A stretch of 64,000 nt of DNA. Source: Candidatus Omnitrophota bacterium. Lineage in GTDB: Bacteria; Omnitrophota; Gorgyraeia; Gygaellales; JAHJCI01. Every line of letters starts with the position of its first letter. Within the stretch, counting starts at the first letter, position 1. Positions 9,176 through 35,942 of the stretch are shown here, piece after piece. The position numbers and the translations under genes are program-made. The stretch lies in contig JBHPGP010000003.1 in NCBI GenBank assembly GCA_042570305.1, positions 14,507 to 78,506 of the forward strand, written 5' to 3'. The notes beneath the pieces were generated by a model. That model had not been told where the DNA came from. It did no database searches and worked only from the letters and a program-made list of their open reading frames with translations.

Positions 9176-9204
9176 TTGACAGGGATGTAACTAGATGTTA
9201 AAAT
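9176..9204 (+). promoter_or_regulatory. Near-consensus sigma70-type promoter (TTGACA-17 nt-TAAAAT) upstream of aroK leader
   Basis: TTGACA lies at 9176-9181, followed by a 17-nt spacer and TAAAAT at 9199-9204. It sits in the 360-bp spoVG-aroK spacer, downstream of the terminator. Confidence 0.55.
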
Positions 9205-9216
9205 TAGTGGTTATGA

Positions 9217-9283
9217 GGGGGCACCCTTTTATACAGCTTAAGGGGTGTCCCCCGATTGGCTAAGAGGGTATTTTTGGGTGTCC
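9217..9283 (-). repeat. CCAATCGG-core palindromic element, copy a (reverse orientation, extended)
   Basis: Sequence: GGGGGCACCCTTTT...AAGGGGTGTCCCCCGATTGGCTAAGAGGG...GGGTGTCC. The reverse complement contains TTAGCCAATCGGG, identical to copy d. Confidence 0.7.
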
Positions 9284-9350
9284 GAGTTAGTGAGGCCACC
9301 AGGGGTATTGTTAAAACCATGGCTAATATTTACTTGGTGGGTTTTATGGG
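9282..9350 (+). repeat. 69-bp direct repeat, copy 1 (duplicate of aroK RBS region + first 32 coding nt)
   Basis: 68/69 identical to 9392-9460. The single difference is T9311 vs C9421. Confidence 0.95.
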
Positions 9351-9369
9351 GTTCTGGTGCGACGGATAA
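9319..9369 (+). CDS. Candidate 16-codon upstream ORF / leader peptide MANIYLVGFMGFWCDG* created by duplication of the aroK 5' end
   Basis: It has the same RBS context and first 32 nt as aroK (69-bp direct repeat), then diverges to Phe-Trp-Cys-Asp-Gly-stop. Translation is unproven. Confidence 0.25.
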   Translation: MANIYLVGFMGFWCDG

Positions 9370-9391
9370 GGAGCACCGCTTAGAACGGTGG

Positions 9392-9460
9392 CCGAGTTAG
9401 TGAGGCCACCAGGGGTATTGCTAAAACCATGGCTAATATTTACTTGGTGGGTTTTATGGG
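9392..9460 (+). repeat. 69-bp direct repeat, copy 2 (authentic aroK 5' end)
   Basis: 68/69 identical to 9282-9350 at an offset of 110 nt. Confidence 0.95.
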
Positions 9461-9941
9461 AACAGGCAAGACTGCCGTAGGCAGGGAAGTGGCCAGGCAG
9501 TTGAATCAGCAGTTTATTGACCTGGATTCCAGGATTGAGAAGGGGGAAGGGAAAAAAATCAGTCAGATTTTCTCTGAAGAGGGAGAGGCCTATTTTAGGA
9601 ACCTGGAAAAACAGGCGCTCAAACAGATAGCAGCAGGAGCAGGCTGGGTGGTTTCCTGCGGCGGAGGTATTATTTTGGATAACGATAATATCAGGATGAT
9701 GAAAGAGACGGGAAGTATGGTTTGCCTTACCTCAAGGCCGCAGGTGATTCTTATGCGTACGCAAGCTTATGGGCACCGGCCTTTATTGAACGTTGATAAT
9801 CCGGCTGAAAAGATTGAGGAACTGCTTAAGATGCGCGCGCCTTTTTATGCCCAGGCAGATTATACTATTGATACCTCGGATTTGACAATTGCGGAAGTAG
9901 TGAATAAGGTTCTGACATATGTTAGAGGCAAAAACGCTTGA
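9429..9941 (+). CDS. aroK: Shikimate kinase
   Basis: 170 aa with the P-loop GFMGTGKT, in the typical AroK size range, in an aro context near aroC. Confidence 0.9.
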   Translation: MANIYLVGFMGTGKTAVGREVARQLNQQFIDLDSRIEKGEGKKISQIFSEEGEAYFRNLEKQALKQIAAGAGWVVSCGGGIILDNDNIRMMKETGSMVCLTSRPQVILMRTQAYGHRPLLNVDNPAEKIEELLKMRAPFYAQADYTIDTSDLTIAEVVNKVLTYVRGKNA

Positions 9942-10875
9942 TTGGCTTAAGTTAACGCTTATTCCCGCCATCGGTCCGGCAAGGCTGAAGATGCTGCGAG
10001 AAAGATTCTTGCAGCCGGATAAAATTTTCGCTGCTTCAGAAAAAGAGCTTGCTTCGGTTTTGGGTGCTGAGCCTGCCGGGGTAATCCAGCGGCAGCGAAA
10101 GGAAATTGATTTGGCCAGGCAGCTGCGCCTGATAGAGAAGTATCGTGTTCAGATTATTACTCAGGATGACGCATCCTACCCAAAGAACCTGAGGAGTATA
10201 TTCGACGCCCCTTTTTTATTATTTTTGCAGGGCGAGCTTTCACCGGGAGACGATTTTGCAATTGCCGTTGTGGGCACCAGGATGGCAACGCTGTATGGAA
10301 TGAATATGGCGCGTAAGATCAGCATCCAGTTAGGGCAGGCAGGGTTTACGATTGTCAGCGGGGGAGCCAGGGGAATTGATACAGCCGCTCATCAGGCAGC
10401 GTTGGGGATAAATGCGCGCACAATTGCGGTAATAGGATGCGGCCTGGATGTGGTTTATCCTTCTGAAAATGCGCGTCTGTTTCAACGGATTGCGCAAAGG
10501 GGTGCGGTGATTTCCGAGTTTCCTATGGCAACCGCGCCTTTTCGCCAGAACTTCCCTCAGCGTAACCGCATTATCAGCGGTTTATCTATGGGGGTAGTTG
10601 TTGTTGAAGCGCCGGTCAGGAGCGGTGCCCTGATTACTGCTTCGGCTGCGCTGGAGCAGGGCCGCGAGGTCTTTTGCGTGCCAGGAGAGGCTGACAGTTT
10701 TACCATGAAGGGCAGCCACCAGCTGTTAAGGGAAGGGGCAAGATTAGTCGAGGGTATTGAAGACATTATTGAGGAGATAGAACCTATATTGAGAAACAGA
10801 TTAGTAAAAAGGGACACCCTGCCGATTGGCTCAAAGGGTGTCCCCCGAACGGATGAAAGGATGTCCCTTAAATGA
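9919..10875 (+). CDS. dprA: DNA-processing protein DprA (Smf)
   Basis: 318 aa with an N-terminal HhH-like region and a Rossmann-like DprA core (VVGTR..., SGGARGID, VVVVEAPVRSGALITA). It has the conserved dprA-topA synteny and an ATGA overlap with topA. Its 3' tail is encoded by a palindromic repeat copy. Confidence 0.88.
   Translation: MLEAKTLDWLKLTLIPAIGPARLKMLRERFLQPDKIFAASEKELASVLGAEPAGVIQRQRKEIDLARQLRLIEKYRVQIITQDDASYPKNLRSIFDAPFLLFLQGELSPGDDFAIAVVGTRMATLYGMNMARKISIQLGQAGFTIVSGGARGIDTAAHQAALGINARTIAVIGCGLDVVYPSENARLFQRIAQRGAVISEFPMATAPFRQNFPQRNRIISGLSMGVVVVEAPVRSGALITASAALEQGREVFCVPGEADSFTMKGSHQLLREGARLVEGIEDIIEEIEPILRNRLVKRDTLPIGSKGVPRTDERMSLK
10811..10844 (-). repeat. CCAATCGG-core palindromic element, copy b (minimal 34-bp form, inside dprA 3' coding end)
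   Basis: GGGACACCCT-gccgattggctcaa-AGGGTGTCCC is a perfect 10-bp inverted repeat. The reverse complement reads GGGACACCCTTTGAGCCAATCGGCAGGGTGTCCC. Confidence 0.8.
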
Positions 10876-12848
10876 AGAATGCATTAGTAATTGTGGAGTC
10901 GCCAACCAAGGCAAAAACCATCGGCAACATTTTGGGCAAGGGTTATTCAATCATTTCTTCAATGGGGCATATTATTGACCTGCCGCGCAAGAAGCTGGGG
11001 ATTGATATGGAAAATGAGTTCAGTCCGGAATTCGTGGTTATTTCCGGAAGGCAGAAGATATTAACCGCACTAAAGAAAGAGGCAGCCGGTAAAGACAAGA
11101 TTTATATTGCTACTGACCCTGACCGCGAAGGCGAGGCAATCGGGTGGCATATCAAGGAGAAATTAGCCGGAAAGAGAAAATTCCTGAGGGTGGTTTTCCA
11201 TGAGATTACCCCTCAGGCAATAAAGGAGGCATTCCATAACCCGCGAGGCTTTGATGCGAATATGGTTGAGGCTCAGTTTGCGCGCCGCATCCTTGATAGA
11301 ATCGTGGGTTATTTCTTAAGCCCTTTGCTCTGGCGTAAGATCAGCCGCGGTTTAAGCGCAGGCAGGGTGCAATCCGTAGCCCTGCGCTTACTCGTGCAGC
11401 GCGAAAGAGAAATCCAGAAATTCGTTCCTCAGGAATACTGGGAGATTGAGGCAGAGCTGCGCAAGAAATCCGCCTCAAAGAAACAAAGCAGCTTTACGGC
11501 AAAATTAGAGAAGATAGGAGAAGACAAGGCCCAGATACAAGATAAGCAGGCTGCGGATAATCTATTAGAGGATTTAAAGGACAAGGCGTTTATCGTCAGC
11601 GGAATCAAACAGAGCGAAAAAAAGCGCAGGCCATCGCCTCCTTTCATTACCAGCACCTTGCAGCAGGAGGCGTTTAATAAGTTAAAGTTTGGTATCAGGC
11701 GTACAATGATCATTGCCCAGCAATTATACGAAGGCATTGAGCTGGGCGGGAAAGCCCCGGTAGGTTTAATTACCTATATGAGAACCGATTCTACCAAGGT
11801 GGCGGCTTCTGCGCTTGTGCAGGTACGTAATTTTATACTTAATAATTTTGGCAAACATTACCTGCCCGACTCACCGAATATCTATAAGACCAAAAGGCTG
11901 GCACAGGAGGCCCACGAGGCAATCCGGCCGGCTTCGCTTGAGTATACTCCGGAGAGCATAAAAGACTCCCTCAATAAAGAACAGCATAAATTATATGAAT
12001 TAATCTACAACCGGTTTGTCGCCAGCCAGATGGCGCCGGCACGTTATCTGGTAACCCAGGTGAAGATCAAGGCAGATAACTATTTGTTTTCCGTTTCCGG
12101 GACCAAGGTTATCTTTCAGGGGTTTACCAGGGTTTATAACCGCGAGGAGGAAGAGGATAAGGCATTACCTGATTTGGAAAAGGACGAGGCGCTGGATTTA
12201 ATCAAGCTTATTCCCAGCCAGCATTTTACCAGGCCGCCCAGCCGTTATTCGGAGGCTTCGCTGGTTAAAGTTTTGGAAGAAGCGGGCATTGGCCGTCCCT
12301 CGACTTATGCCCCGATAATCCTTACCATTATTAACCGGGATTATGCGCGCCGCATCAAAGGGTACTTTCACGCCACTGAGTTAGGTTTTAAGGTCTGCGA
12401 TTTGCTGGTAGAATATTTCCCCCGCATCCTGAATATGAAATTTACTGCCCAGATGGAGGATGAACTGGATAAGATTGAAGAGGGGCAGTGCGATAGATTG
12501 AAGGTATTAAATGACTTTTACCCGCCCTTTAAATCCCTTCTGGATTATGCTCAGAAGCATATTAAGAAAGAGATAATCCTTACTGAGGAAGTCTGCAAGC
12601 AGTGCGGCCGTCCTCTGGCAATAAAGTGGGGCCGCCGGGGGAAATTCCTGAGTTGTTCCGGGTTTCCCGAATGCAAATATTCCAAAACTATCACTACCGG
12701 CGTGAAGTGTCCGTCGCCGGGATGTGATGGCGAATTAGTCCAACGCCGTTCAAAGCGCGGCGCATTCTACGGCTGTTCTAATTTCCCCAAATGCCGCTTT
12801 ACCAGCAGGGATTTACCCGCGCCCAAAGAGGATGCAACGCTACATTGA
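10872..12848 (+). CDS. topA: DNA topoisomerase I
   Basis: 658 aa with a Toprim N-terminus (LVIVESPTKAKTI), the catalytic-Tyr region (GLITYMRTDS) and two C-terminal C4 zinc fingers. Confidence 0.93.
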   Translation: MKNALVIVESPTKAKTIGNILGKGYSIISSMGHIIDLPRKKLGIDMENEFSPEFVVISGRQKILTALKKEAAGKDKIYIATDPDREGEAIGWHIKEKLAGKRKFLRVVFHEITPQAIKEAFHNPRGFDANMVEAQFARRILDRIVGYFLSPLLWRKISRGLSAGRVQSVALRLLVQREREIQKFVPQEYWEIEAELRKKSASKKQSSFTAKLEKIGEDKAQIQDKQAADNLLEDLKDKAFIVSGIKQSEKKRRPSPPFITSTLQQEAFNKLKFGIRRTMIIAQQLYEGIELGGKAPVGLITYMRTDSTKVAASALVQVRNFILNNFGKHYLPDSPNIYKTKRLAQEAHEAIRPASLEYTPESIKDSLNKEQHKLYELIYNRFVASQMAPARYLVTQVKIKADNYLFSVSGTKVIFQGFTRVYNREEEEDKALPDLEKDEALDLIKLIPSQHFTRPPSRYSEASLVKVLEEAGIGRPSTYAPIILTIINRDYARRIKGYFHATELGFKVCDLLVEYFPRILNMKFTAQMEDELDKIEEGQCDRLKVLNDFYPPFKSLLDYAQKHIKKEIILTEEVCKQCGRPLAIKWGRRGKFLSCSGFPECKYSKTITTGVKCPSPGCDGELVQRRSKRGAFYGCSNFPKCRFTSRDLPAPKEDATLH

Positions 12849-13692
12849 TAAGTTCTTAAGATATCTGGAGATCGAGAAGAATTATTCCTCGCTTACCCTG
12901 TTGAATTACCGGGTGGACCTGGAAGATTTCAGCAGCTTTCTCAGGCAGACGCCATTAGAGAAGGTAGATTATTTAGCCTTAAGGAGGTACCTGGCGCATC
13001 TGAAAGAGAGAAGGTTAGGCACGCGCAGCATAGCCCGTAAGCTTTCCTGCCTGCGTTCCTTTTTCAAGTTTCTCTGCCGCGATAATTACCTGAAAAGCAA
13101 TCCTGCGCTGAGCCTGAGCGCAATGAGGCTGGATAAACACCTGCCCTCATTCTTGACCGAAGAGCAGGTGTTGAAGTTATTGCAGGCGCCCGGAGGCAGC
13201 ACCGAAAGGGACCTGCGCGACCAGGCGATCCTGGAGACGTTTTACAGCACAGGGATGCGCATTTCAGAATTGGTGGGCATGAATATCGATGATTTGGATT
13301 TTATCAGCGGCGTAGCTAAAGTCAGGGGTAAGGGGAAAAGGGAACGCCTGCTTCCCATCGGAGAGTATGCGCTGAAGGCGATCCGGTCATATTTGGAGAA
13401 AAGAAAAAAGAAATCCAACTCCTTATTCTTGAATAAGAATAACACCCGCTTATCCGACCGGGGGGCAAGGAACGTGGTGCGTAAGTATATCCGTCTTGCT
13501 TCATTAAGCGGCGGTATCTCAGCGCATAGCTTAAGGCATTCCTTTGCTACGCACCTCTTAAACCGCGGAGCAGACTTAAGAAGCGTACAGGAGCTTTTAG
13601 GACATGCTAATTTGTCTACAACCCAAATTTATACGCATCTTACTACTGAGAAGCTAAAGAGCGTCTATGATAAGGCTCACCCCAGGGCATAA
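12832..13692 (+). CDS. xerC: Tyrosine recombinase XerC/XerD family
   Basis: 286 aa with an N-terminal SAM-like domain and the catalytic R...HxLRHSFATHLL...GH...TQIYTH signature. It follows topA as in many genomes. Confidence 0.85.
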   Translation: MQRYIDKFLRYLEIEKNYSSLTLLNYRVDLEDFSSFLRQTPLEKVDYLALRRYLAHLKERRLGTRSIARKLSCLRSFFKFLCRDNYLKSNPALSLSAMRLDKHLPSFLTEEQVLKLLQAPGGSTERDLRDQAILETFYSTGMRISELVGMNIDDLDFISGVAKVRGKGKRERLLPIGEYALKAIRSYLEKRKKKSNSLFLNKNNTRLSDRGARNVVRKYIRLASLSGGISAHSLRHSFATHLLNRGADLRSVQELLGHANLSTTQIYTHLTTEKLKSVYDKAHPRA

Positions 13693-13702
13693 AGGAGGTA
13701 AA

Positions 13703-14377
13703 ATGAAGCCCAAGATTTTACTAATATTATCAACCGTCTTTTTGTTTGCCTGTTTTATTAATCTTCAGGAGGTAGTTATGGCTGAATTAACCAAGATCCA
13801 GTTGCCCGAACCGGTTAAGCAAGGCAAGATGTCTGTAGAGGAAGCCATCTTAAACAGGCGCTCGGTAAGGAATTTCACGCAAAGGGATTTAGGCTGGCCT
13901 GAAATCAGTCAATTACTCTGGGCAGCTCAGGGTATCACCGCAAAAAAGGGCAGCCTTTCCTTGCGCTCCGCTCCCTCAGCAGGAGCCCTTTACCCCCTTG
14001 AGATTTACCTTTTTAATTCGCAGGGAATGTTTCATTATCTGCCGCAGTCTCATAAGCTGGAGGTTCTTGCCGAAGGAGACCTGCGCAGCGTTCTTTGCGA
14101 AGCTGCCCTGTCTCAGGCATCTGTTGCTCAGGCAGCGGTTGATATTGTTATCTGCGCGGTCCCTCAACGGGTAACCGCCAAATACGGCGAACGGGGAATG
14201 AAATATGTGTATATTGAAGCCGGGCACGTTGCCCAGAATATTCATTTAGCAGCAGTTGCCTTAGGCCTGGATTCATTGCCTGTCGGAGCATTTAGCGATG
14301 AGCAGGTTAGTGCAATTTTATCCCTGCCTGCAGAGCAAGAGCCTGTTTACATTATCCCAGTCGGTTACGCCCAATGA
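13703..14377 (+). CDS. Nitroreductase-family (SagB-type) oxidoreductase with N-terminal signal/anchor
   Basis: ATG 13703 follows AAGGAGG. RRSVRNF and GALYPLE motifs are typical of the nitroreductase/SagB fold. The hydrophobic N-terminus is KILLILSTVFLFACF. Confidence 0.7.
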   Translation: MKPKILLILSTVFLFACFINLQEVVMAELTKIQLPEPVKQGKMSVEEAILNRRSVRNFTQRDLGWPEISQLLWAAQGITAKKGSLSLRSAPSAGALYPLEIYLFNSQGMFHYLPQSHKLEVLAEGDLRSVLCEAALSQASVAQAAVDIVICAVPQRVTAKYGERGMKYVYIEAGHVAQNIHLAAVALGLDSLPVGAFSDEQVSAILSLPAEQEPVYIIPVGYAQ

Positions 14378-14435
14378 GGGACACCCTGTTTACCAATCGG
14401 GAGTCTGGCGTAGGGCTAATCGGGAGCCTGTCCCC
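14378..14435 (+). repeat. CCAATCGG-core palindromic element, copy c (full length)
   Basis: Sequence: GGGACACCCTGTTTACCAATCGGGAGTCTGGCGTAGGGCTAATCGGGAGCCTGTCCCC. It starts directly after the nitroreductase stop codon. Confidence 0.85.
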
Positions 14436-14453
14436 AAGTAAGTTGATTATTTT

Positions 14454-15752
14454 ATGACTATTCTTTATGATTTAGCATTTATTATTTTCGCAATAGGTTA
14501 TCTTCCCTATCTTCTCCTGAAAAGAAAGCTGCATAAGGGGCTGTTTCAGCGCTTGGGCTTTCTGCCGGAGAGCCTGAGGTTAGAGCAGCCTGTCTGGATA
14601 CACGCCGTAAGCGTTGGAGAGGCAAGGGTAGCCGGAATTCTGGTTGAACAATTACGTCGGGATTTTCCCGGTAAGAGATTTGCCTTCTCGACCATAACAG
14701 TTACCGGAAGTAAGATTGTACGCAGCTTCCTGCAGAAAGGGGATTTTTTGTTTTATCTGCCTTTTGATTTAAGCCTTATCGTCAGGAAGGTCATCTCGCG
14801 GCTTAAGCCCTGTGCCTGCATTATCGTGGAAACAGAAATCTGGCCGAATTTAATCTATCAACTGAAAAAAATGAATGTTCCTGTTATTCTGGTGAATGCG
14901 AGGATTTCAGACCGTTCATTTTCCGGCTACAGGACCATCAGGCCCCTGATTAAACCAATTTTAAACAAGGTGAATCTCTTCTGCGTTCAGGGTCAGAGTG
15001 ATGCACGCAGGCTATCAAGCTTGGGCGTAGATACAGATAGGCTGCGGGTTACCGGCAACATGAAATTCGATTTTTTACAGTGCTCTCAAGGCATTAAAGG
15101 GGATTATACGAACTACAAACTGAGACTGGGCTTGGAAACAAAAGAGAAATTATTTATTGCCGGCAGCACACACCCCGGAGAAGAGGAAGTTATCCTTAAT
15201 ACTTATAAGAAGCTATTAGATGAATTTCCCGGCTTGCGGCTCCTGCTTGCTCCGCGCCATCCTGAAAGGGCTGGGCAGGCAGCAGGCGAGGCAGTAAAAT
15301 TCGGATTCCAGGCAGTACTTATTTCTACTTTGACAAACAGTGCGCAGCAGGCTACGCAAGCGCAAGGGGACAGAAGCAGACAGCCTCCGGTATTTATCCT
15401 GGATACTATCGGAGAGCTCATGTCTTTTTATGCCATTGCGGATATTGTCTTTGTCGGCGGCAGCCTGGTCAAGAAGGGCGGGCATAATATACTGGAGCCG
15501 GCTTTATGCGCAAAGCCTATTCTTTTCGGACCTCATATGTTTAATTTCAGGGAGATGAGCGAATTATTCTTAGCCCAAAAGGCAGCCCGCATGGTGCGGG
15601 GGCAGGAAGAATTATTCATTGAAATGAAAAATTTATTGACCGATAGTTCTCAGCTGATGAATATTGGAAAACAGGCGAGGGAGCTGGTTTTAAAAAACCA
15701 GGGCGCAACCAGTCAGAATGCAGAGTTAATTAAAGGGTTAGTTGCCGTATGA
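14454..15752 (+). CDS. waaA: 3-deoxy-D-manno-octulosonic acid (Kdo) transferase
   Basis: 432 aa with an N-terminal anchor, the WIHAVSVGE motif and a GT30-like C-terminal half (GGSLVKKGGHNILEP). Confidence 0.9.
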   Translation: MTILYDLAFIIFAIGYLPYLLLKRKLHKGLFQRLGFLPESLRLEQPVWIHAVSVGEARVAGILVEQLRRDFPGKRFAFSTITVTGSKIVRSFLQKGDFLFYLPFDLSLIVRKVISRLKPCACIIVETEIWPNLIYQLKKMNVPVILVNARISDRSFSGYRTIRPLIKPILNKVNLFCVQGQSDARRLSSLGVDTDRLRVTGNMKFDFLQCSQGIKGDYTNYKLRLGLETKEKLFIAGSTHPGEEEVILNTYKKLLDEFPGLRLLLAPRHPERAGQAAGEAVKFGFQAVLISTLTNSAQQATQAQGDRSRQPPVFILDTIGELMSFYAIADIVFVGGSLVKKGGHNILEPALCAKPILFGPHMFNFREMSELFLAQKAARMVRGQEELFIEMKNLLTDSSQLMNIGKQARELVLKNQGATSQNAELIKGLVAV

Positions 15753-16816
15753 AAGAATATTTATATTCATTAGCCACGGATAAAAGCAGGGGTTTGCTTG
15801 CCGGAGTGCTGAAGTTCATTTTATTTATCCTTTCTCTGATTTACGGCCTGGCAATCAGGATGCTGTCCTTTTTTTACTGCCTTAAGCCTTACCGTTTTAA
15901 TTGCAGGGTTATCAGCGTAGGCAATATTACTTTGGGAGGCACAGGTAAGACATTGCTGGTAGAAATGCTGGCCGGGCTCCTGAAGAAAGACGGCCATAGG
16001 GTTGCGGTATTAAGCAGGGGTTATAAGAGGCCAGGGGTTGCACACCCGGTGTCCGGGGAGAGTTATGAGGCAATGGGTGATGAGCCGTATATGTTAAGCA
16101 GGAATTTGGGCGATATACCTGTAATTGTGGATAAGCACAGAGCCAGGGCAGCTAAAAAGGCAATCCGGGATTATCAGGTTGATACGGTTATTCTGGATGA
16201 CGGATTTCAGCAGTGGAAAATAAAAAAGGATTTGGAGATTGTTACCATTGACGCTACCAATCCATTCGGCAATCTAAGCATGTTGCCCAGAGGGGTCCTG
16301 CGCGAGCCATTATCTTCTTTAAGGCGTGCCGATATTTTTGTTTTAACCAAAACCAATTTCACGAAGGACAGTCAAAAAATAAAGAATACCCTGAACCGGA
16401 TAAGCCCCGGATGCCTGATTTTCCAAGGGGGTTATAAGCCAGAGGGTTTTTACAGGCTGGATGATTCAGCAGGCACGTTGCTGGGGCCCGAAGCATTTGC
16501 AGGCAGGCAGGCGGGGTTGCTTTGCGGGATTGCTGACCCGGAGTCATTTGCCGGCTTAATCAGGAATTTAGGCATCGGTATCGGTATATCCTTTAAGTTT
16601 CCCGACCACCACCAATATACCAAGGCAGAACTTGATCGGGTTGCCGGAGAATTAAAGAAGAGGGATATTAAATTGCTTATTACTACAGAGAAAGATTATG
16701 TGCGTCTTGAGGCTTGCGGCTTTAGGTTATCCGCAATCAGTTGTTATATTATGCGCATCAGGATGGAATTAACCGAGAATGAAGCATTCATTAAGCGAAT
16801 ACGCTCTCTATATTAG
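15749..16816 (+). CDS. lpxK: Tetraacyldisaccharide 4'-kinase
   Basis: 355 aa with the P-loop VGNITLGGTGKT, the GDEP motif and DDGFQ. ATGA overlap with waaA. Confidence 0.9.
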   Translation: MKEYLYSLATDKSRGLLAGVLKFILFILSLIYGLAIRMLSFFYCLKPYRFNCRVISVGNITLGGTGKTLLVEMLAGLLKKDGHRVAVLSRGYKRPGVAHPVSGESYEAMGDEPYMLSRNLGDIPVIVDKHRARAAKKAIRDYQVDTVILDDGFQQWKIKKDLEIVTIDATNPFGNLSMLPRGVLREPLSSLRRADIFVLTKTNFTKDSQKIKNTLNRISPGCLIFQGGYKPEGFYRLDDSAGTLLGPEAFAGRQAGLLCGIADPESFAGLIRNLGIGIGISFKFPDHHQYTKAELDRVAGELKKRDIKLLITTEKDYVRLEACGFRLSAISCYIMRIRMELTENEAFIKRIRSLY

Positions 16817-18725
16817 TTTCCGCCTGCTTTCCGCATTTTTTCAGGCATTGCCGCTCAGATTCTCTTTGTTTATCGGCAGGGCGCTGGGAATGCTTGGACT
16901 GTGGTTTGACCTCAAGCACAGGCGTATTGCTTATCGGAATCTCTGCATCGCCTTTTCCGCTCAATATTCCATTCCTGAGTTGAAGGCGATACTAAAAAGG
17001 AATTATCAGAACCTGGGTATGAATATGGTCGAAGCATTGAGAATACCGCTAATGGATGATGCCTATATAAAGCGCTATATCAGGATGACCGGTGAGGAGA
17101 ATTTAGAGAATGCGCTGAAGAATAAAAAGGGAGCAATTGTCCTGGGAGCACATTTCGGCAGCTGGGAGATTTGTTTTGCCATAGCCGGGATGTTAAAATA
17201 CCCCTTTTGCGTCTTTGCCGAAGAACAGTCAAAGAATCCCCTGCTGGATGAATTATTGAACCGTATGCGCCAGAGTAAAGGCGTAGAGGTTTTAAAGGTA
17301 AGCGGGAAGATACGTCAGGTAGTCGGCAGTTTGAAGAAGAATAAATTTGTGGGTATGGTTGCCGACCACGGGGCAAGGAAAGGGATATTTGTGGATTTCT
17401 TCGGCAGGAAAACGCGCGCCCCCAGCACGGCAGCGAGAATAGCCTTAAGGCTCGGTGTGCCGATCTTAATTGCGTATATTCGCAGGGTAAAAGGCCCGGA
17501 ACACGAGTTAGTGATTATGCCTCCCCTGGAGATTAAAAGAAGCGGTAATTTCAAACAGGATATGATCGCTACGGTGGAAGCGATTAACCGCTTGACCGAA
17601 GATTATATAACTAAATACCCAGAGCAGTATTTCTGGTTTTACAAACGTTTCAAATACAGCGCCCAGCGCAACATTCTCTTCCTGCATGACGGCAAGGCCG
17701 GGCATTTGCGTCAGGGAGAGACTTTAATCGGGCTGCTGGAGAATATTGCCGGGCAGAAGGGGATAGAGCTTAGAACAAAACTGCTGAAGATAGATTTTAA
17801 TAACAGGTACGCTTCTTTACTGCAATCCCTGGGCTTAACCCTGGCACACCGCAATACCTGCCAGGGGTGTTTATTTTGCTTGAGGAGGTTACTGGCGCCG
17901 GGCATATCCAGAGAGCTAGAGTCCTATTTTGCCGATATAGTGATTTCCTGCGGCTGGCGGACCGCAGCCGTCAATTGCGTTATCTCAAGCGACAGGCAGA
18001 GCAAGTCAATAGCGCTGATGCGTCCGGGGTTTTTAAGCGTAAAAAGGTTTGACCTGGTGGTGATGCCTTATCATGACAATCCACCGAGCAGGAATAACGT
18101 CGTGGTTACGCAAGGGGCACTGAATCTGGTTGACGAAAATTATCTGCAATCCTCTGCCAGGGATTTACAGTCTCAGGTTAGTCTCGGGCAGGGCCTGGTT
18201 TTAGGCTTGCTGCTCGGCGGAGATACAAAGAGTTTCCGGCTTTCCTGTGATTTATTAAAGCCGCTGATTGCGCAAATCAAGCTATTTTTAGAAAGGCATG
18301 ACGGCAAGATTCTGATTACTACCTCCCGCCGTACAAGCCAGGATGCGGAACGCCTGATCAGGGCTGAATTCGGCAGTTACGCACGCTGTAAATTATTGGT
18401 CATCGCTAATGAGAATAATCTGCCCTTTGCCGTAGGCGGAATCCTGGGCCTAAGCAGAATAGTGATTGTTTCTCCGGAAAGCATCTCGATGATTTCCGAG
18501 GCAGCCAGTTCCGGAAGGTATGTGGTGGTTTTCAAGCCCGGAATGAATATAGGCAGACGCCACAGCCGGTTCCTGCGGAATCTTGCGGATAAGAAATATA
18601 TTTATTTAACAGATAGTGCCCGGTTGTCCGAAACCTTAGAGGGGATTATTACAGATAAGCCAGGGGTTGTGAAATTAGAGGATAATCTTAAAGTAAAACA
18701 GGCCCTGGAGAAGCTATTAATCTGA
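16779..18725 (+). CDS. Fusion protein: lipid A late acyltransferase (LpxL/HtrB family) + ELM1/DUF1022 (COG3660)-like domain
   Basis: 648 aa. Residues 1-~295 match Lip_A_acyltrans (NLCIAF...PELKAI, HFGSWE, PEQYFWFYKRFK). Residues ~297-648 carry ELM1-family marks (LFLHDGKAGHLRQ, ILITTSRRT). It is a single uninterrupted ORF. Confidence 0.65.
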   Translation: MKHSLSEYALYISFRLLSAFFQALPLRFSLFIGRALGMLGLWFDLKHRRIAYRNLCIAFSAQYSIPELKAILKRNYQNLGMNMVEALRIPLMDDAYIKRYIRMTGEENLENALKNKKGAIVLGAHFGSWEICFAIAGMLKYPFCVFAEEQSKNPLLDELLNRMRQSKGVEVLKVSGKIRQVVGSLKKNKFVGMVADHGARKGIFVDFFGRKTRAPSTAARIALRLGVPILIAYIRRVKGPEHELVIMPPLEIKRSGNFKQDMIATVEAINRLTEDYITKYPEQYFWFYKRFKYSAQRNILFLHDGKAGHLRQGETLIGLLENIAGQKGIELRTKLLKIDFNNRYASLLQSLGLTLAHRNTCQGCLFCLRRLLAPGISRELESYFADIVISCGWRTAAVNCVISSDRQSKSIALMRPGFLSVKRFDLVVMPYHDNPPSRNNVVVTQGALNLVDENYLQSSARDLQSQVSLGQGLVLGLLLGGDTKSFRLSCDLLKPLIAQIKLFLERHDGKILITTSRRTSQDAERLIRAEFGSYARCKLLVIANENNLPFAVGGILGLSRIVIVSPESISMISEAASSGRYVVVFKPGMNIGRRHSRFLRNLADKKYIYLTDSARLSETLEGIITDKPGVVKLEDNLKVKQALEKLLI

Positions 18726-28866: not shown

Positions 28867-29394
28867 GTGGATGAATCTTTAAGAATCAAAGCGGAAAAAA
28901 TCAAATTATTGTTATTGGACGTTGACGGAGTGCTCACGGACGGAAGGATAATTTACGATTCCAAGGGCCGGGATTCCAAGTTCTTTAATGTGCACGACGG
29001 ATTAGGGGTCTACCTTCTTAAAAGGGCCGCTATATCCACGGTCTTGATTACTGCAAAGGCATCGCGTTCAATCAAGCCGCGCGCCCGCGACATGCGGGTT
29101 GCCGAGGTTTTTGCCGATGTTTCTCCGAAGAGCTCTGTTTTCCAGAAGATTTTAAAGAAATACCGCGTCAGCCCGGAAGAGGTTTGCTTTGTCGCCGACG
29201 ACCTGGTTGATTTATGCCTGATGGACAAGGTGGGCCTTGCGGTTGCCGTGTTTAATGCTTGTCCGGAGATAAAGAACCTTGCCCATTACATTACCCAGAG
29301 AGAAGGGGGAAGGGGAGCAGTCAGAGAGGTCGCGGAGATAATCCTGAAATCCCAGGGCAAGTGGCAGGAAATAATCGGTTCATACCGGCACTAA
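28867..29394 (+). CDS. kdsC: Kdo-8-phosphate phosphatase (HAD family)
   Basis: 175 aa with a GTG start, the HAD motif LLLLDVDGVLTDG and GDDLVD-like motif IV (ADDLVDL). Confidence 0.88.
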   Translation: MDESLRIKAEKIKLLLLDVDGVLTDGRIIYDSKGRDSKFFNVHDGLGVYLLKRAAISTVLITAKASRSIKPRARDMRVAEVFADVSPKSSVFQKILKKYRVSPEEVCFVADDLVDLCLMDKVGLAVAVFNACPEIKNLAHYITQREGGRGAVREVAEIILKSQGKWQEIIGSYRH

Positions 29395-29439
29395 CTCAAT
29401 GCCCTAATAGGCAAAGAGGGTTAAGGGGAGAGAAGAGGC

Positions 29440-30165
29440 TTGGTGCATCTATTAGAAGCAAAGAATCTATTCAAGTCTTATAACGGCAGGGATGTCGTAA
29501 GAGGCATTGACCTTTTAGTAAAGCGCGGAGAGATTGTCGGCTTATTGGGGCCTAACGGTGCAGGTAAAACCACTACCTTTTATATGATCGTGGGGATTAC
29601 GCATCCCAAGCAGGGAGCGATTATTTTTGATAACCAGAATATCACGCGCCTGCCCATACATATCCGTTGCCGTTTCGGTATTGCGTATCTGAGTCAGGAG
29701 CCGTCAATTTTTAGAAAACTCAGCGTTGAAGAGAATATCCTGGCGGTGCTGGAGACAATGCCGTTGGGCCGCAGGGAAAGGAAGAAAAGGCTGCAATATT
29801 TATTAGAGGAGTTGAACATCTCCCACTTAGCAAAGAACAAGGCTTATACTTTGTCCGGAGGAGAGAGGAGGAGGCTTGAGATTACCCGCGCGCTGGTGAG
29901 TAATCCCTCGTTTATCCTGCTTGACGAGCCATTCTCCGGCATTGACCCGATTGTGGTTAACGAGGCACAGGAGATTATCAAGGATTTGAAAAAGAAGGGT
30001 CTGGGTATACTGCTTACCGACCATAATGTACGCGAAACACTCTCGATTACCGACCGCGCCTATCTGATTGCCGAAGGCAGAATCCTTATTTCAGGCAGCG
30101 CAGAAGATTTAATCAGCGACCCCAAGGCGCGCGAGATTTACCTTGGAGAGAAGTTCAGGATGTAA
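29440..30165 (+). CDS. lptB: LPS export ABC transporter ATP-binding protein
   Basis: 241 aa with a TTG start, Walker A GPNGAGKTT, signature LSGGERRR, Walker B ILLDEP and an LptB-type C-terminus (YLGEKF). Confidence 0.9.
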   Translation: MVHLLEAKNLFKSYNGRDVVRGIDLLVKRGEIVGLLGPNGAGKTTTFYMIVGITHPKQGAIIFDNQNITRLPIHIRCRFGIAYLSQEPSIFRKLSVEENILAVLETMPLGRRERKKRLQYLLEELNISHLAKNKAYTLSGGERRRLEITRALVSNPSFILLDEPFSGIDPIVVNEAQEIIKDLKKKGLGILLTDHNVRETLSITDRAYLIAEGRILISGSAEDLISDPKAREIYLGEKFRM

Positions 30166-30190: not shown

Positions 30191-31066
30191 ATGAAGACTG
30201 ATGTTAAAAAGACAGGAGAGCACAAGCGCGAATTGAGCGTTCAGGTAGAAGGAGATATTGTCAGGCAAAAGTTCGAAACGGTTTATAAACAGATAAATAA
30301 AGAGGCCAAGGTTCCGGGTTTCCGTCCGGGCAATGTTCCGCGCGATATTTTGGAAAAACATTATGCCAGCGCAGCCAGGGAAGGCGTTTTAAAAGAACTG
30401 CTGCCTGAGGTTTATCATCAGGCATTGGGTCAGTCGGGGCTTGAGCCGGCCGGCCTGCCGGAAATATCAAAGGTAAATCTGGCTAAGGATACCTTGACTT
30501 TTACGGCTCATTTGGAAGTAAAGCCAAGCATTAATTTAAAAAATTACAAGGGGCTTAAGGTGGAATATAAGCCTATTGAAGTGAGCGCCGATGAAATAAA
30601 ACAGGCGCTGGATAAACTAAAAAAGAATTACGAGCAGTTTTCTGAACAGGAGTTTGCGCGCAGCCTCGGTTACCCGGACCTTGAGGTATTAAAAAAGGCC
30701 CTGGAAAAACAGATCTATCTTGAGAAGGCAAGGACACAGCAGGTAAACGCAGAAAACAGGGTTATTCAACAACTGGTTGACCAGGTGAGCTTTCAGATTC
30801 CCTCCAGTTTAATCAATCAGCACCTGGAGAGGATGCTAAGGCAGGCTCAGGTCGAGCTGGCTTTGCGCGGGATGAGTAAAGAGGAGGTCGAGAAGCAGGG
30901 CGCTGCATTAAGGGAGAATTTCAAAAGCGAAGCAGAAAAACAGGTACGCATCTTCCTGGTCTTGGAAGAGGTAGCGCGCAGGGAAAAAATTGCCCTCGAT
31001 GATAAGATGACCAAGGAGGCGGTTGAGTTTTTGTTAAGGCAGGCAGACTGGCAAGAGGCTAACTAA
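30191..31066 (+). CDS. tig: Trigger factor lacking the central FKBP/PPIase domain
   Basis: 291 aa with the N-terminal ribosome-binding domain and GFRPGNVP signature. The sequence passes directly from ...[20 protein letters not shown] into the C-terminal arm domain. It has the tig-clpP synteny. Confidence 0.8.
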
Positions 31067-31775: not shown

Positions 31776-32915
31776 ATGAGGAAAACCTATCTATTGACAC
31801 CCGGACCGACTCCCCTGCCTCCGCAGGTAACCGAGGCCCTGGCCCGCCCGATAATTCATCATCGCACGTCCCAGTTTCAGGCAATATTAAAAGAGGCGGG
31901 AGAGGGACTGAAATATGTATTTAATACCTCCAATGACGTATTCATTCTTGCTTCTTCAGGTACCGGAGCAATGGAGGCAGCGGTAGTAAACCTGCTTTCT
32001 CCCGGCGATACGGCAATAACCGTAGAGGGAGGTAAATTCGGCGAGCGCTGGACGCAGGTCTGCCGGGCTTACGCGGTAAATTGCGAGGTGATAAAGGTCC
32101 GGTGGGGCCAAGCAGTCAAGCCTCAAGATATAGAAAAGAGAATAAAGGCAAACCCCGCCATAAAGGCGGTGTTTGTCACCCTCTGCGAGACCTCTACCGG
32201 AGTGGTTAATGATATCGCGGCAATCGGCAAGGTAGTTTCCGCAAGCAAGGCAGTATTGGTAGTTGACGCTATCAGCGGGCTGGGGGCAATCCCTTTGTCA
32301 ACGGATCAGTGGTACTGCGATGTGGTGGTTGCCGGTTCGCAAAAGGGCCTGATGCTTCCTCCGGGACTCGGGTTTATCTCAGTAAGCCCTAAGGCCAGGG
32401 ATTTAATTGACCATTCAAAATGCCCTAAATATTATTTTGATTTAAAGTCTGCAAAAAAGGCATGGGAGAAGATTGATACGCCCTTTACCTCGGCAATATC
32501 GCTGATTGTTGCCCTGAACGAAGCACTCAAGCTGATAAAAGAGGAAGGGCTGGAGAGTATTTTCTCGCGCCACCAAAGGTTAGCCGAGGCAGCGCGCAAG
32601 GCAGCAGGCGCTTTGGGGTTGGAGCTTCTTGCTCCCGAAGCCGCCTCTGATGTGGTGACCGCCATTAAGTTACCCTCAGGCATCGACGGCAATAAACTGG
32701 TCAAGACAATGCGCGATACTTACGGGGTAACTATTGCCGGCGGTCAGGCAGAATTGAAGGGTAAAATTATCCGTATTGCCCATATGGGCTATATCCAGGA
32801 GTTCGATATTATCACCGGGATATCCTGTTTAGAAAAGGTATTATCCCAGATGGGCCATAAATTTCAATTGGGAGTTGGGGTTAAGGCAGCTGAAGAGGTA
32901 TTTGCTAAGGAATAA
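31776..32915 (+). CDS. Class V aminotransferase (serine-pyruvate/alanine-glyoxylate type; probable phosphoserine aminotransferase given serA context)
   Basis: 379 aa, starting LLTPGPTP..., with the SQKGL PLP-lysine motif. It has AGXT-family size and layout and lies near serA. Confidence 0.75.
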   Translation: MRKTYLLTPGPTPLPPQVTEALARPIIHHRTSQFQAILKEAGEGLKYVFNTSNDVFILASSGTGAMEAAVVNLLSPGDTAITVEGGKFGERWTQVCRAYAVNCEVIKVRWGQAVKPQDIEKRIKANPAIKAVFVTLCETSTGVVNDIAAIGKVVSASKAVLVVDAISGLGAIPLSTDQWYCDVVVAGSQKGLMLPPGLGFISVSPKARDLIDHSKCPKYYFDLKSAKKAWEKIDTPFTSAISLIVALNEALKLIKEEGLESIFSRHQRLAEAARKAAGALGLELLAPEAASDVVTAIKLPSGIDGNKLVKTMRDTYGVTIAGGQAELKGKIIRIAHMGYIQEFDIITGISCLEKVLSQMGHKFQLGVGVKAAEEVFAKE

Positions 32916-32950
32916 TCAAGGCCATTACAGGCGAGGGGAGTTGTATTGCC

Positions 32951-34321
32951 ATGGATGAGCGAAGAGGGTCTTATCGTATTCCTGTAAGCATTAAATTCAG
33001 TTATCAGATACTCAGTGCGGCAACAGGCACTGAATTGCGGCATCTTGCATTGACTAAGAATATGAGTGCTAAGGGGTTGCTCTTTGAAAGCCAGGAAGAG
33101 ATGTCAATCGGTACACGGTTAAAGCTGTTCGTTGATTTACTGGGTAAGCCTTCCAGGACAATAGAGCTGGAGGCTGAGGTTGCCAGGGTAGAGAGGTTGC
33201 TGGATTCAGGATATTTTGATATCGGGGTATTTTTCATCAATACGCCTGCGGCTGTGGCAGAGGATCTCAAGATACGCGTTGAGCGGATGGATGTTCTAAG
33301 CCTGTTGAGCATGGCCGTGGAAAAACAAGCATCAGATTTGCACCTTACTACCAATTCTCCTCCCATGATGAGATTACACGGAGTAATAAAACCGCTGGAG
33401 TTGCAGGCAGGGCCCCTCTCCTCAGAAGAAATCGAACAGATGGTCTATAGCGTCCTTTCCGACTCGCAGAAAAAAAGGTTCAGAGAACAAAAGGACCTGG
33501 ATTTTGCTTTTGTCTCTGAACAAAATCTGAGATACCGCGTCAGCGTATATCAGCAGCGAGGTAATGTGGAGGTTGTTTTTAGAATTATCCCGTCTACGAT
33601 TAAGAATATAGAAGAGCTGGGCCTGCCGCAAGTGGTCGAAAGTTTATGCCGCCTGACAAACGGGATAGTGATTATTGCCGGCTCCACTGGTTCGGGCAAG
33701 ACCACCACCATAACTACGATGATAGACATCATAAATAAAACAAAGGGCGGGGTCATACTCTCCCTGGAAAAACCGATTGAGTACACCCATAAGAATATAA
33801 AGGGCATAGTCAAGCAGAGGGAGGTAGGATTTGACGTGCCGTCTTTTGCGGCTGGTTTAACCGCCGGATTAAGGCAGGACCCCGACGTAATTGTAGTGGG
33901 AGAAATAATTGATTGCGATACCCTGGAGACGGCCCTAAATGCAGCGGAGACGGGCCACCTGGTAATCAGCTCAATCCACGCTGCCAATACCGTCCAGGTT
34001 CTCGATAGGCTAATCAGCCTTTTTCCTTTGGAGCAGCAGGTTTTTATCTCCGGAAGGCTTTCTCATTGCCTGAAGGCAATCATTACCCAGGCCCTATTGC
34101 CGCATAAGAATGGATACGAACGCGTCCTTGCTGCTGAGGTATGCACGAGTAATTATGCGGTGATGAGGGTTATCTATGACCGGAATTTCTCTCAGCTGAG
34201 TTCAATATTGCAATCCGGAGCCAGTCAAGGAATGCAATTGATGCAAAGCTCCGTAGATAAAATTTTTGAGCAAGGCCTGATTACGGGAGAGACTTACGAG
34301 ATTTACAGTAAAAAAAGATAA
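32951..34321 (+). CDS. pilT: PilZ-domain::PilT-like type IV pilus retraction ATPase fusion
   Basis: 456 aa. The N-terminal ~105 aa carry the canonical PilZ motifs RRGSYR (RRxxxR, res 4-9) and NMSAKG ((D/N)xSxxG, res 37-42). The remainder is PilT-like: ASDLHL, Walker A GSTGSGKTTT, DPDVIVVGEI, and the His box GHLVISSIHA. Confidence 0.8.
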   Translation: MDERRGSYRIPVSIKFSYQILSAATGTELRHLALTKNMSAKGLLFESQEEMSIGTRLKLFVDLLGKPSRTIELEAEVARVERLLDSGYFDIGVFFINTPAAVAEDLKIRVERMDVLSLLSMAVEKQASDLHLTTNSPPMMRLHGVIKPLELQAGPLSSEEIEQMVYSVLSDSQKKRFREQKDLDFAFVSEQNLRYRVSVYQQRGNVEVVFRIIPSTIKNIEELGLPQVVESLCRLTNGIVIIAGSTGSGKTTTITTMIDIINKTKGGVILSLEKPIEYTHKNIKGIVKQREVGFDVPSFAAGLTAGLRQDPDVIVVGEIIDCDTLETALNAAETGHLVISSIHAANTVQVLDRLISLFPLEQQVFISGRLSHCLKAIITQALLPHKNGYERVLAAEVCTSNYAVMRVIYDRNFSQLSSILQSGASQGMQLMQSSVDKIFEQGLITGETYEIYSKKR

Positions 34322-34355: not shown

Positions 34356-35942
34356 ATGAAAATCCTGGTTAGCGATAAATTATCCGAAGAGGGTTTAAAG
34401 ATTCTAAGGGATATAAAAGAATTCGAGGTCGATGTAAACACCGGGCTCAAGCCGGAGGAATTAAAGAAGATTATCAAGGATTACGATGCCCTCATTGTCA
34501 GGAGCTCGACCAAGGTAACCAGGGAGATTATTGAGGCAGCCAGGAACCTGCGCATTATCGGAAGGGCAGGAGTGGGTTTGGATAACGTGGATTTATCCGC
34601 GGCAACCGAAAAGGGGATTGTGGTAATGAATGCGCCTGCCGGCAATACAATCTCTACCTGTGAGCATACCATGAGCATGCTGCTTGCCCTTGCGCGCAAT
34701 ATCCCGCAAGCAAGCGCCTCGCTAAAAAAGGGCGAATGGAAGCGCTCCAAATTCATGGGAATCGAGCTCTATAAAAAAACCTTAGGGATTATCGGACTGG
34801 GCAGGATTGGCGCAGAGGTAGCCAAGCGCGCACTTTCCTTTGGCATGAAGGTGATTGCCTTTGACCCGTATCTTTCCAGAGAGGTAGGAAAAGGCTTAGG
34901 CATAGAGATGGTAGAGCTTCCGGACTTGCTTGCGAATTCAGATTTTATTACGATGCATACTCCGCTTACCGAAAGTACCCGACACATGATTTCTGATAAG
35001 GAATTCGCCTTAATGAAGCAGGGCATCTGGATTATCAATTGCGCGCGCGGAGGGATTGTCGACGAAAAGGCGTTGGTTGAGGCGATCAAACAGGGCAAGG
35101 TTGCCTGCGCAAGCCTTGATGTCTATGAGCAGGAGCCCCTTCCTCCAGATTCTGAACTCTTAAAATTGGATAATGTGATTGCCACGCCGCATCTGGGCGC
35201 TTCTACCGAAGAGGCGCAGGTCAATGTGGCTATCGAGATTGCAGAGTGTATCCGCGATTATCTCCTCGGAAAGGGCATACACAATGCGGTCAATTACCCG
35301 CAGATAGAACCCGAGGTCTATAAGATTCTCGCTCCTTATATAAACCTGGCCGAGAGGTTGGGTAATTTCAGCAGCCAGCTGGTTGAGGGAAGGCCCAAGG
35401 TAGTCTCTATTCAGTACAGCGGAGAAATAGCCGGGCAGGATATTGCCCCGATAACCATGGCCTTAATCAAAGGCTTCCTTACCCCCATACTGGAGGAGAC
35501 GGTAAATTTTGTCAACGCCTGTTCCCTGGCCGAGTCAAGGGGTATTAAGATTAAGCAGACAAAATTATCTTCTGAGGAGGAATTTGTCAATTTAATCTCG
35601 GTAAAAATCGATACGGATAAAGCAAGCTGGAAGATTTCGGCAACCCTTTCGCCTAACCGCCAGCCGCGCATCGTCAAGATAGATGATTTTTATGTTGAGA
35701 TTTCTCCTTACGGCTGCCTGATTATCATCAAGAATCTGGATAAGCCCGGGATAATCGGTAATCTGGGGACACTCTTAGGCAAACACAGTATCAACATCGC
35801 AAGCATGACCTTTGGGCGCAAGGAGCCGGGCGGAGAGGCAGTCAGCGTGTTGAATGTGGACAGCTGCCCCTCTTCTGATTTACTGGAGAAGATAAAAGAA
35901 ATCAAAAATATACTCACGGTCAAATTGATTAAATTAAAATGA
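34356..35942 (+). CDS. serA: D-3-phosphoglycerate dehydrogenase (long form with ASB and ACT domains)
   Basis: 528 aa with the NAD-binding GIIGLGRIGAEVA, catalytic R/E/H contexts and a C-terminal ACT domain. Confidence 0.92.
   Translation: MKILVSDKLSEEGLKILRDIKEFEVDVNTGLKPEELKKIIKDYDALIVRSSTKVTREIIEAARNLRIIGRAGVGLDNVDLSAATEKGIVVMNAPAGNTISTCEHTMSMLLALARNIPQASASLKKGEWKRSKFMGIELYKKTLGIIGLGRIGAEVAKRALSFGMKVIAFDPYLSREVGKGLGIEMVELPDLLANSDFITMHTPLTESTRHMISDKEFALMKQGIWIINCARGGIVDEKALVEAIKQGKVACASLDVYEQEPLPPDSELLKLDNVIATPHLGASTEEAQVNVAIEIAECIRDYLLGKGIHNAVNYPQIEPEVYKILAPYINLAERLGNFSSQLVEGRPKVVSIQYSGEIAGQDIAPITMALIKGFLTPILEETVNFVNACSLAESRGIKIKQTKLSSEEEFVNLISVKIDTDKASWKISATLSPNRQPRIVKIDDFYVEISPYGCLIIIKNLDKPGIIGNLGTLLGKHSINIASMTFGRKEPGGEAVSVLNVDSCPSSDLLEKIKEIKNILTVKLIKLK

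Follow-up and report, generated by a model that had tools for sequence, protein, structure and literature searches.

Control of type IV pili by cyclic di-GMP (c-di-GMP), a second messenger, is known mainly on the extension side, through the MshEN domains of MshE and PilB and through the FimX-PilZ-PilB complex, and control of retraction has so far been indirect or unclear. The retraction ATPases PilT and PilU have been considered unlikely to be regulated by c-di-GMP, as they have no N-terminal sensor domain (PMC4624772). In Xanthomonas campestris, the separate PilZ protein XC_2249 contacts PilT and PilU by two-hybrid, far-Western and Förster resonance energy transfer (FRET) assays, according to the summary of Ryan et al. 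2012 in PMC3749722. Here we describe a gene in a 64,000-nucleotide stretch of DNA from a Candidatus Omnitrophota bacterium (contig JBHPGP010000003.1, positions 14,507 to 78,506 of the forward strand; hereafter the window), whose product carries both modules in one polypeptide, an N-terminal PilZ domain fused to a PilT-class ATPase. The original prediction of a PilZ::PilT fusion, made by reading the sequence, is confirmed, with corrections to its description of the gene as an orphan and of its upstream neighbour as serC-like. By architecture, the family of this protein is an exception to the published expectation. With a probability of about 0.6, we read the fusion as a motor of the retraction type that serves type IVa pili and is gated by c-di-GMP, a reading in which we infer the gating and the link to pili.

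The fusion protein is a 100% match to the NCBI entry 'PilT/PilU family type 4a pilus ATPase' of Candidatus Omnitrophota bacterium (P0001). All six motifs quoted in the original prediction were found at the residues given for them: RRGSYR at 4–9, NMSAKG at 37–42, GSTGSGKTTT at 244–253, DPDVIVVGEI at 310–319, GHLVISSIHA at 335–344 and AVMRVIYDRN at 403–412. The gene and its parts are, in window coordinates:

32951..34321, + strand: PilZ-PilT fusion gene, continuous frame from an ATG start, 456 amino acids plus stop codon.
32934..32941, + strand: Shine-Dalgarno (SD)-like sequence GAGGGGAG, 9 nt 5′ of the ATG.
32957..33265, + strand: PilZ domain, residues 3–105, six-stranded beta-barrel (Pfam PF07238, AlphaFold2 (AF2), Foldseek).
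32960..32977, + strand: RRxxxR c-di-GMP-binding motif (R4 R5 G S Y R9), assigned by sequence conservation.
33059..33076, + strand: (D/N)xSxxG c-di-GMP-binding motif (N37 M S39 A K G42), assigned by sequence conservation.
33248..33286, + strand: C-terminal alpha-helix of the PilZ domain, residues 100–112 (AF2 models, in which it ends at 112 or 113).
33287..33292, + strand: fusion junction M113-D114, equivalent to M1-D2 of stand-alone PilT (BLASTP).
33287..33595, + strand: PilT N-terminal (N2D-type) domain, residues 113–215 (TIGR01420), with the putative arginine fingers R196 and R211.
33680..33709, + strand: Walker A, GSTGSGKTTT, residues 244–253, with G244, T246, G247, G249, K250 and T253 invariant.
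33767..33781, + strand: Asp box variant E273-K-P-I-E277 (canonical EDPIE), from an alignment of 94 members.
33878..33904, + strand: atypical Walker B, DPDVIVVGE, with catalytic E318; D310, G317 and E318 are kept in 94 of 94 members.
33956..33979, + strand: His box, H336 to H343, with H336 in 92 and H343 in all 94 of the 94 members.
34157..34180, + strand: AIRNLIRE position, diverged to A403 V M R V I Y D410 (alignment).

Profile hidden Markov models (HMMs) placed both modules above curated thresholds, in agreement with the original prediction: Pfam PF07238 (PilZ) matched residues 3–105 with 35.8 bits (gathering cut-off 22.5; E 1e-8), and T2SSE matched residues 116–384 with 132.7 bits. The MshEN model PF05157 gave no match in the protein at E ≤ 0.1. 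When a PilZ-only profile was compared with solved structures, the best match was the c-di-GMP receptor MotI/YpfA (5vx6; E 3.8e-8), and the weaker matches, down to E ~0.5, were all PilZ proteins except for one Csm3 chain; they include Xanthomonas PilZ structures at E ~0.04. The AF2 models (predicted local distance difference test, pLDDT, of 83.2 over the full length and 86.9 over residues 1–114) have strands at 15–20, 31–38, 42–47, 56–63, 69–82 and 89–96 followed by a helix, which is the canonical PilZ topology. A Foldseek search of the PDB with the PilZ-domain model returned PilZ domains as all of its top 48 matches (best template modelling (TM) score 0.79), among them MotI, Alg44, PA0012, YcgR, BcsA, PlzD, MrkH, MapZ and PlzA, and the majority of these structures were determined with c-di-GMP. 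HMM, structure profile and predicted fold thus agree that the N-terminus is a PilZ domain.

The residues expected to contact the ligand are retained throughout the family. Of 94 close members, 91 have R5, 90 have R9, all 94 have N or D at position 37, 85 have S39 and 93 have G42; R5, R9, S39 and G42 are each at least 90% conserved among 42 divergent fusions, and R9, S39 and G42 are invariant in a PilZ-only alignment (A4). Divergence is faster in the PilZ part, whose identity to the window protein averages 38%, than in the ATPase part, at 63%, and the ligand-contact residues have been kept all the same, indicating that they are selectively maintained. Alignments and models together indicate, by computation, a PilZ fold with both c-di-GMP-contact motifs, maintained by purifying selection throughout the family. 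The fusion protein probably binds c-di-GMP.

The C-terminal module belongs to the PilT class, as originally predicted. The NCBIfam PilT/PilU subfamily model TIGR01420 matched residues 117–449 with 375.3 bits (cut-off 319.1; E 3e-112), and this generic model was the only one in NCBIfam that the ATPase passed; scores against the GspE, PilB, DotB and VirB11 models fell far under their cut-offs. Among solved structures, phmmer matched the C-terminal 340 residues best to PilT proteins, those of Aquifex aeolicus (2ewv; E 2.9e-83), Geobacter (PilT4; E 1.6e-77) and Pseudomonas aeruginosa (E 2.6e-74), with PilU (9n32) scoring more poorly at E 6.1e-65. The whole-protein model matched Geobacter metallireducens PilT4 (6ojx) in Foldseek (E 2.9e-37, TMt 0.88), and residues 113–456 align end to end with PilT4 and Aquifex PilT at 41–42% identity. 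R194, R196 and R211 of the N-domain are invariant in 67 sequences; R196 and R211 are putative arginine fingers, by analogy with the motif context described in PMC5424180. Catalytic residues K250, E273/E277, E318 and H336/H343 are invariant or nearly so, and the alignments indicate computationally that the catalytic motifs of the ATPase are all intact.

Two positions deviate from ordinary PilT. In the Asp box, E273 and E277 are kept in 94 of 94 close members, and the intervening position 274 is lysine in 84 and arginine in 8 of them; most divergent fusions have EDPIE, with R, N, Q or H at the aspartate position in a few. The Asp box reads EDPIE in Aquifex PilT and in the PilT of another Omnitrophota metagenome-assembled genome (MAG; L052). 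A reading of D274K as an inactivating change is not supported, since both Asp-box glutamates are invariant and the universally conserved Mg-coordinating residue of the box is a glutamate (McCallum et al., PMC5424180). At the AIRNLIRE position, the consensus of the 94 close members is AV(R/K)RII and some divergent fusions retain AIRNLIRK or AVRNIIRE; the degeneracy seen in the original prediction is a trait of the family, and the window copy is more degenerate than the consensus. The protein also departs from PilT sensu stricto in length (456 amino acids vs. ~340–370 for a single module without a sensor). The ordinary Omnitrophota PilT of L052 has 354 amino acids, EDPIE and SIQNLIRE, and shares only 40% identity with the fusion ATPase, so that the fusion is a distinct paralog and not a housekeeping PilT with an add-on.

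The two modules meet without a linker. BLASTP pairs M113 of the fusion with M1 of the stand-alone L052 PilT (MDVLSLL vs. MDISELL), D114 is at least 90% conserved among the divergent fusions, and in the AF2 model only two residues separate PilZ helix 100–112 from the first PilT helix (115–124). Because M113 pairs with the PilT start and the helices stand two residues apart, alignment and model indicate computationally that PilZ was joined linker-free to the ancestral first residue of PilT, as expected from an upstream pilZ gene reading through into pilT. An internal start at M113, which would yield a PilZ-less isoform, was considered and is unsupported, as no SD-like sequence precedes M113 in the 8 loci examined; the annotated starts of 7 homologous loci are also preceded by SD-like sequences.

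The fusion family is large and, as far as names go, confined to uncultivated phyla, which is probably why it remains unstudied. About 100 further clusters (built at 90% identity; drawn from NCBI, JGI, ENA and Logan assemblies) combine PilZ and T2SSE in proteins of 455–470 amino acids with 50–69% identity to the window protein, and their named members are all Omnitrophota. A profile of residues 1–215, covering PilZ and the PilT N-domain, gave 48 matches at E ≤ 1e-30 against 1.84 billion 50%-identity representatives; about half of its top 150 matches cover both modules, the full-length ones having 448–550 amino acids. The 42 divergent fusions are 29–59% identical to the window protein, and Pfam recognized PilZ in 41 and T2SSE in all 42. 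Names among them include candidate division Zixibacteria (MCJ7457976.1, MDP3024196.1) and a 'Patescibacteria group' MAG (HTY44566.1), and MFH2138186.1 represents a second, very divergent Omnitrophota type of PilZ-ATPase. A word-indexed search with a profile of divergent members only (A5; 29 matches) added two partial 'Omnitrophica' fusions, and two GTDB representatives labelled 'uncultured Planctomycetales' show the Omnitrophota-type synteny of the fusion. In a neighbour-joining tree of the ATPase modules, which is star-like, the true non-fused PilTs group together. The phylogenetic survey suggested with the original prediction therefore finds a conserved family of about 100 clusters and dozens of divergent members, not a one-off.

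Some related architectures surfaced in these searches. A seeming actinobacterial fusion in Pseudonocardiales (L076), beside PilB and a GGDEF-EAL gene, was rejected because the tblastn match crossed a stop codon; on translation, this stop codon separates PilB from an ordinary PilT, and there is no fusion. Many proteins of 714–757 amino acids (P0080–P0120, e.g. from Chondromyces crocatus) score as double PilT-like and seem to consist of two PilT modules fused in tandem. In P0157, P0245, P0202 and P0228 (516–1024 amino acids), a PilT-type N-domain lies far from the N-terminus; PilT-family motors may have acquired other N-terminal modules as well.

In the mechanism that we propose, c-di-GMP would be bound by the PilZ barrel through R5/R9 and N37/S39/G42. 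When PilT docks to PilC, its AIRNLIRE/C-terminal domain (CTD) face is argued to be turned to the cytoplasm (Adams et al., PMC6762196), and for this reason an N-terminal PilZ ring would be placed on, or close to, the side that faces the platform. The hexamer would then carry six liganded PilZ domains at or close to its docking face, as the N2D face would be the one turned towards PilC and the membrane; this location is topologically equivalent to the MshEN site in PilB. From there, ligand binding could govern whether the hexamer docks or how it competes with PilB, or could bias the pattern of open and closed interfaces in the hexamer. High c-di-GMP would block retraction, so that pili stay extended and adhesive at a time when a MshEN-type PilB is being stimulated, and retraction would be released as c-di-GMP falls. 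This inhibitory direction is weakly preferred by analogy, at near even odds: it is consistent with the promotion of extension by c-di-GMP via MshE and with Vibrio cholerae, in which low c-di-GMP favours retraction (PMC7096442), and it parallels the PilZ brakes YcgR and MotI.

Of 141 Velamenicoccia genomes, 135 have type IVa pilus genes, as do the majority in four further Omnitrophota classes; the pili have been tied to host attachment by Seymour et al., whose paper makes no mention of PilT, PilZ or c-di-GMP (PMC10066038). L052 contains a full cluster (positions 8236–15225) with the order PilB(MshEN)-PilT-PilB(MshEN)-PilC-minor pilin, the minor pilins after PilC being GspH/T2SSJ-like. By regular expression, its second PilB contains a complete MshEN motif I, RLGRILIEKGLLSSEQLNEALENQ, and its first PilB none. 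Because one of these PilBs retains the full motif, the extension motor in Omnitrophota is probably c-di-GMP-responsive too. A PilZ-ATPase of the MFH2138186.1 type was found in another locus (L091, 10001–11389), with an EQPIE Asp box and a weak PilZ match. A stand-alone PilZ gene with RxxxR and DxSxxG motifs lies 6.5 kb upstream of it (L091, 3160–3573), and points to c-di-GMP signalling in Omnitrophota.

A further step, possible but on balance doubtful, is that across Omnitrophota and certain further uncultivated phyla c-di-GMP acts directly and reciprocally on both motors, MshEN-PilB for extension and PilZ-PilT for retraction, which would compete for one platform, with the PilZ ring as a docking-face clutch. 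Such a clutch would be the switch with which ultra-small, host-dependent cells keep their grip on a host cell or reel themselves in towards it, and the fusion would be the first retraction ATPase to serve as a c-di-GMP receptor itself. As pili are the presumed means of host attachment in Omnitrophota, the fusion gene is a candidate for the point at which their episymbiotic or predatory way of life is controlled.

The genes on either side of the fusion in the window are:

31776..32915, + strand: class-V (AGXT/BhcA-like) aminotransferase, upstream neighbour (Pfam Aminotran_5).
34356..35942, + strand: serA, D-3-phosphoglycerate dehydrogenase, downstream neighbour (TIGR01327).

The intergenic gaps are 35 nt after the aminotransferase and 34 nt before serA, and a scan for promoters and terminators around the fusion gene found nothing above shuffled background. 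The original prediction had placed the gene between serC-like and serA genes. The serA assignment is sound, the protein being a true phosphoglycerate dehydrogenase (TIGR01327, 708 bits vs. a cut-off of 454); 'serC-like' is only loosely right, as the aminotransferase passed no SerC equivalog model and its best score, 350 bits with BhcA, is below the cut-off of 650. An inventory of the 64-kb window (Pfam on 34 open reading frames (ORFs) and a six-frame motif scan, with the remaining ORFs inspected by eye) found no other pilus or type II secretion gene and no GGDEF/EAL gene. The gene is not a stray orphan, as the order aminotransferase-fusion-serA is conserved in 8 independent loci among the matches listed, comprising 5 metagenome loci, with fusion proteins 53–66% identical to that of the window, and 3 GTDB representatives. 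The shared order is kdsB-kdsA-kdsD-kdsC-(lptC/A)-lptB-tig-clpP-aminotransferase-fusion-serA-(unknown, ~590 amino acids)-HMGL-like-purA-ompA, a collinear housekeeping block of more than 20 kb. Because the fusion lies within this long block, its position between the aminotransferase and serA is a fixed lineage trait and does not itself argue for a functional tie to serine synthesis.

Divergent fusions occupy quite different neighbourhoods, also of housekeeping genes. The only pilus hint among the contexts is a prepilin-type gene directly upstream of the divergent fusion in L088. A second hint comes from the Zixibacteria-type locus L090 (7552–9006): ~1 kb upstream of the divergent fusion is the gene of an HD-GYP-like protein, in which HD stands at residue 269 and HHLNLDLSGYP at residue 324. 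An EpsI-domain gene is also directly upstream of this PilZ-PilT fusion.

The window itself offers several further observations. Nearly all genes in 1–64000 are on the + strand, with a monotonically rising cumulative GC skew, and no tRNA genes or Rfam families were detected in the 64 kb. An LptC/LptA-like gene (PF06835/PF03968, 280–319 amino acids) stands between kdsC and lptB in 6 of 6 syntenic loci; the corresponding gap in the window is only 45 nt (29394–29440), so this gene is missing or has moved. In most relatives (L001, 13022–14767; L005, L006, L007, L009 and L010), serA is separated from the HMGL-like gene by a conserved ORF of 577–607 amino acids without a Pfam match, which is absent from the window and L003. 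The trigger factor of the window (30191–31066) is short, with 291 amino acids matched by TIGR00115 in two stretches, and in homologous loci it consists of Trigger_N and Trigger_C without the FKBP-type peptidyl-prolyl isomerase (PPIase) domain; absence of the PPIase domain seems to be a lineage-wide trait. Tandem paralogs rich in tetratricopeptide repeats (TPR) at 197–2071 and 2110–4350 have near-identical N-termini (IFACVILIIILGFAVYGNSLNGKFVWDDD), the first with a weak PMT_2 match, which suggests a recent duplication of a membrane glycosyltransferase-like protein. Within a lipopolysaccharide/Kdo (3-deoxy-D-manno-oct-2-ulosonic acid) block, one protein of 648 amino acids (16779–18725) has a lipid A acyltransferase domain (PF03279) and, fused to it, an ELM1-like domain (PF06258). 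A DprA gene (DNA_processg_A) is present at 9919–10875; DprA acts in natural transformation, which in other bacteria uses retractile type IV pili.

Several observations weigh against a c-di-GMP-gated retraction motor. The canonical aspartate of the Asp box is replaced by lysine in the fusion clade, and the AIRNLIRE position of the window protein, AVMRVIYD, is identical at 2 of 8 residues; AIRNLIRE was reportedly found by Aukema et al. in 2005 to be required for PilT function in vivo. All six contexts examined are housekeeping neighbourhoods, not pilus clusters, and in the 64-kb window no other pilus, type II secretion or GGDEF/EAL gene was found. The direction of regulation is a guess. For XC_2249, c-di-GMP binding is not needed for motility control, according to the account in PMC3749722, and PilU, which has no AIRNLIRE, depends on PilT for its function (PMC6762196). 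Because PilU shares the loss of AIRNLIRE and acts only through PilT, a PilU-like accessory motor, adding or withholding force under c-di-GMP and needing a canonical PilT in the same cell, is a serious rival, although an unlikely one. Divergence of the AIRNLIRE position throughout the close clade, the 40% identity to an ordinary Omnitrophota PilT with EDPIE and SIQNLIRE, and a sole NCBIfam match to the generic PilT/PilU model all suit such a role, as does the PilT-dependence of PilU; sequence scores nevertheless favour PilT structures (E 2.9e-83 to 2.6e-74) over PilU 9n32 (E 6.1e-65), and AIRNLIRK or AVRNIIRE in some divergent fusions makes the ancestral fusion look PilT-like.

It is improbable that the PilZ domain serves as a ligand-independent adaptor tethering the ATPase to a partner, like type II PilZ, which in Xanthomonas and Pseudomonas binds PilB and FimX. 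Non-binding PilZ adaptors do occur in pilus control (PMC8389850), and XC_2249, as described in PMC3749722, governs Xanthomonas motility without a need for c-di-GMP binding; the weak profile matches to Xanthomonas PilZ structures would fit as well. Yet both ligand motifs are near-invariant down to ~30% identity while the rest of the PilZ domain drifts, and the best matches in sequence and fold are ligand-binding PilZ domains. Still less probable is a non-pilus ATPase tied to its neighbours (serine and amino-acid metabolism, or Clp and trigger factor) or serving another secretion or DNA-uptake machine. Strict conservation of the aminotransferase-fusion-serA order, with gaps of 34–35 nt and no promoter or terminator signal above background, is what such a tie would predict, and pilus genes are indeed not nearby. 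However, collinearity over more than 20 kb of unrelated housekeeping genes argues for a lineage-wide gene order over a specific operon, divergent fusions lie in entirely different neighbourhoods, and a PADLOC scan gave no defence match beyond a P-loop-level one; in well-studied bacteria, too, it is common for pilT to lie apart from the pilus clusters. That the fusion is an artefact, produced by assembly, a frameshift or the gene calling, has a negligible probability, being refuted by recurrence in ~100 independent clusters from four sources (NCBI, JGI, ENA and Logan) and in dozens of divergent representatives, by the continuous frame in the window, and by an SD-like site before the annotated start with none before M113.

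Full-text searches, in which literature coverage was incomplete, found no papers describing the PilZ-PilT fusion architecture, and the survey preprint of Galperin and Chou lists many PilZ fusions, none of them to PilT or any ATPase. As coverage was incomplete and the architecture is visible in domain databases, it is apparently undescribed rather than unknown. The original prediction had called gating of a PilT-class motor by a fused PilZ domain an uncharacterised mechanism; this holds in so far as no paper on the fusion was found, and needs qualifying by the in-trans precedent of XC_2249 as summarised in PMC3749722. The fusion in turn gives independent support to the PilZ-PilT/PilU contact reported in Xanthomonas, and with this family the direct gating of a PilT hexamer by a second messenger could be studied in a single protein.

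Compared with PilT (2ewv, 6ojx, 3jvu), the fusion has the same Walker A, Asp-box glutamates, Walker B glutamate, His box and fold, and differs in its 112-residue N-terminal PilZ module, in EKPIE for EDPIE and in the diverged AIRNLIRE. Like PilU, it is a PilT-family paralog without the canonical AIRNLIRE; unlike PilU, it has a sensor domain, and it scores lower against PilU than against PilT structures. XC_2249 resembles it as a PilZ protein physically coupled to retraction ATPases, of which the fusion looks like a covalent 'Rosetta stone' version. In the summary cited above, XC_2249 acts in trans and depends on GGDEF proteins and an HD-GYP regulator, whereas the fusion is one polypeptide with strictly conserved ligand residues. 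YcgR and MotI provide the parallel of a c-di-GMP-loaded PilZ domain acting directly on a motor as brake or clutch, and MotI (5vx6) is the closest solved relative of the fusion PilZ by sequence and fold; those proteins are separate and act on the flagellar stator or rotor, whereas the PilZ domain of the fusion sits within the motor subunit. MshE and PilB share its order and logic, a c-di-GMP sensor followed by N2D and the catalytic CTD (PMC4624772, PMC5013675), but combine a helical MshEN motif with an extension motor, where the fusion combines a PilZ beta-barrel with a retraction-type motor. Domains and regulatory theme are therefore known, and the new combination is the sensor on a retraction-type motor.

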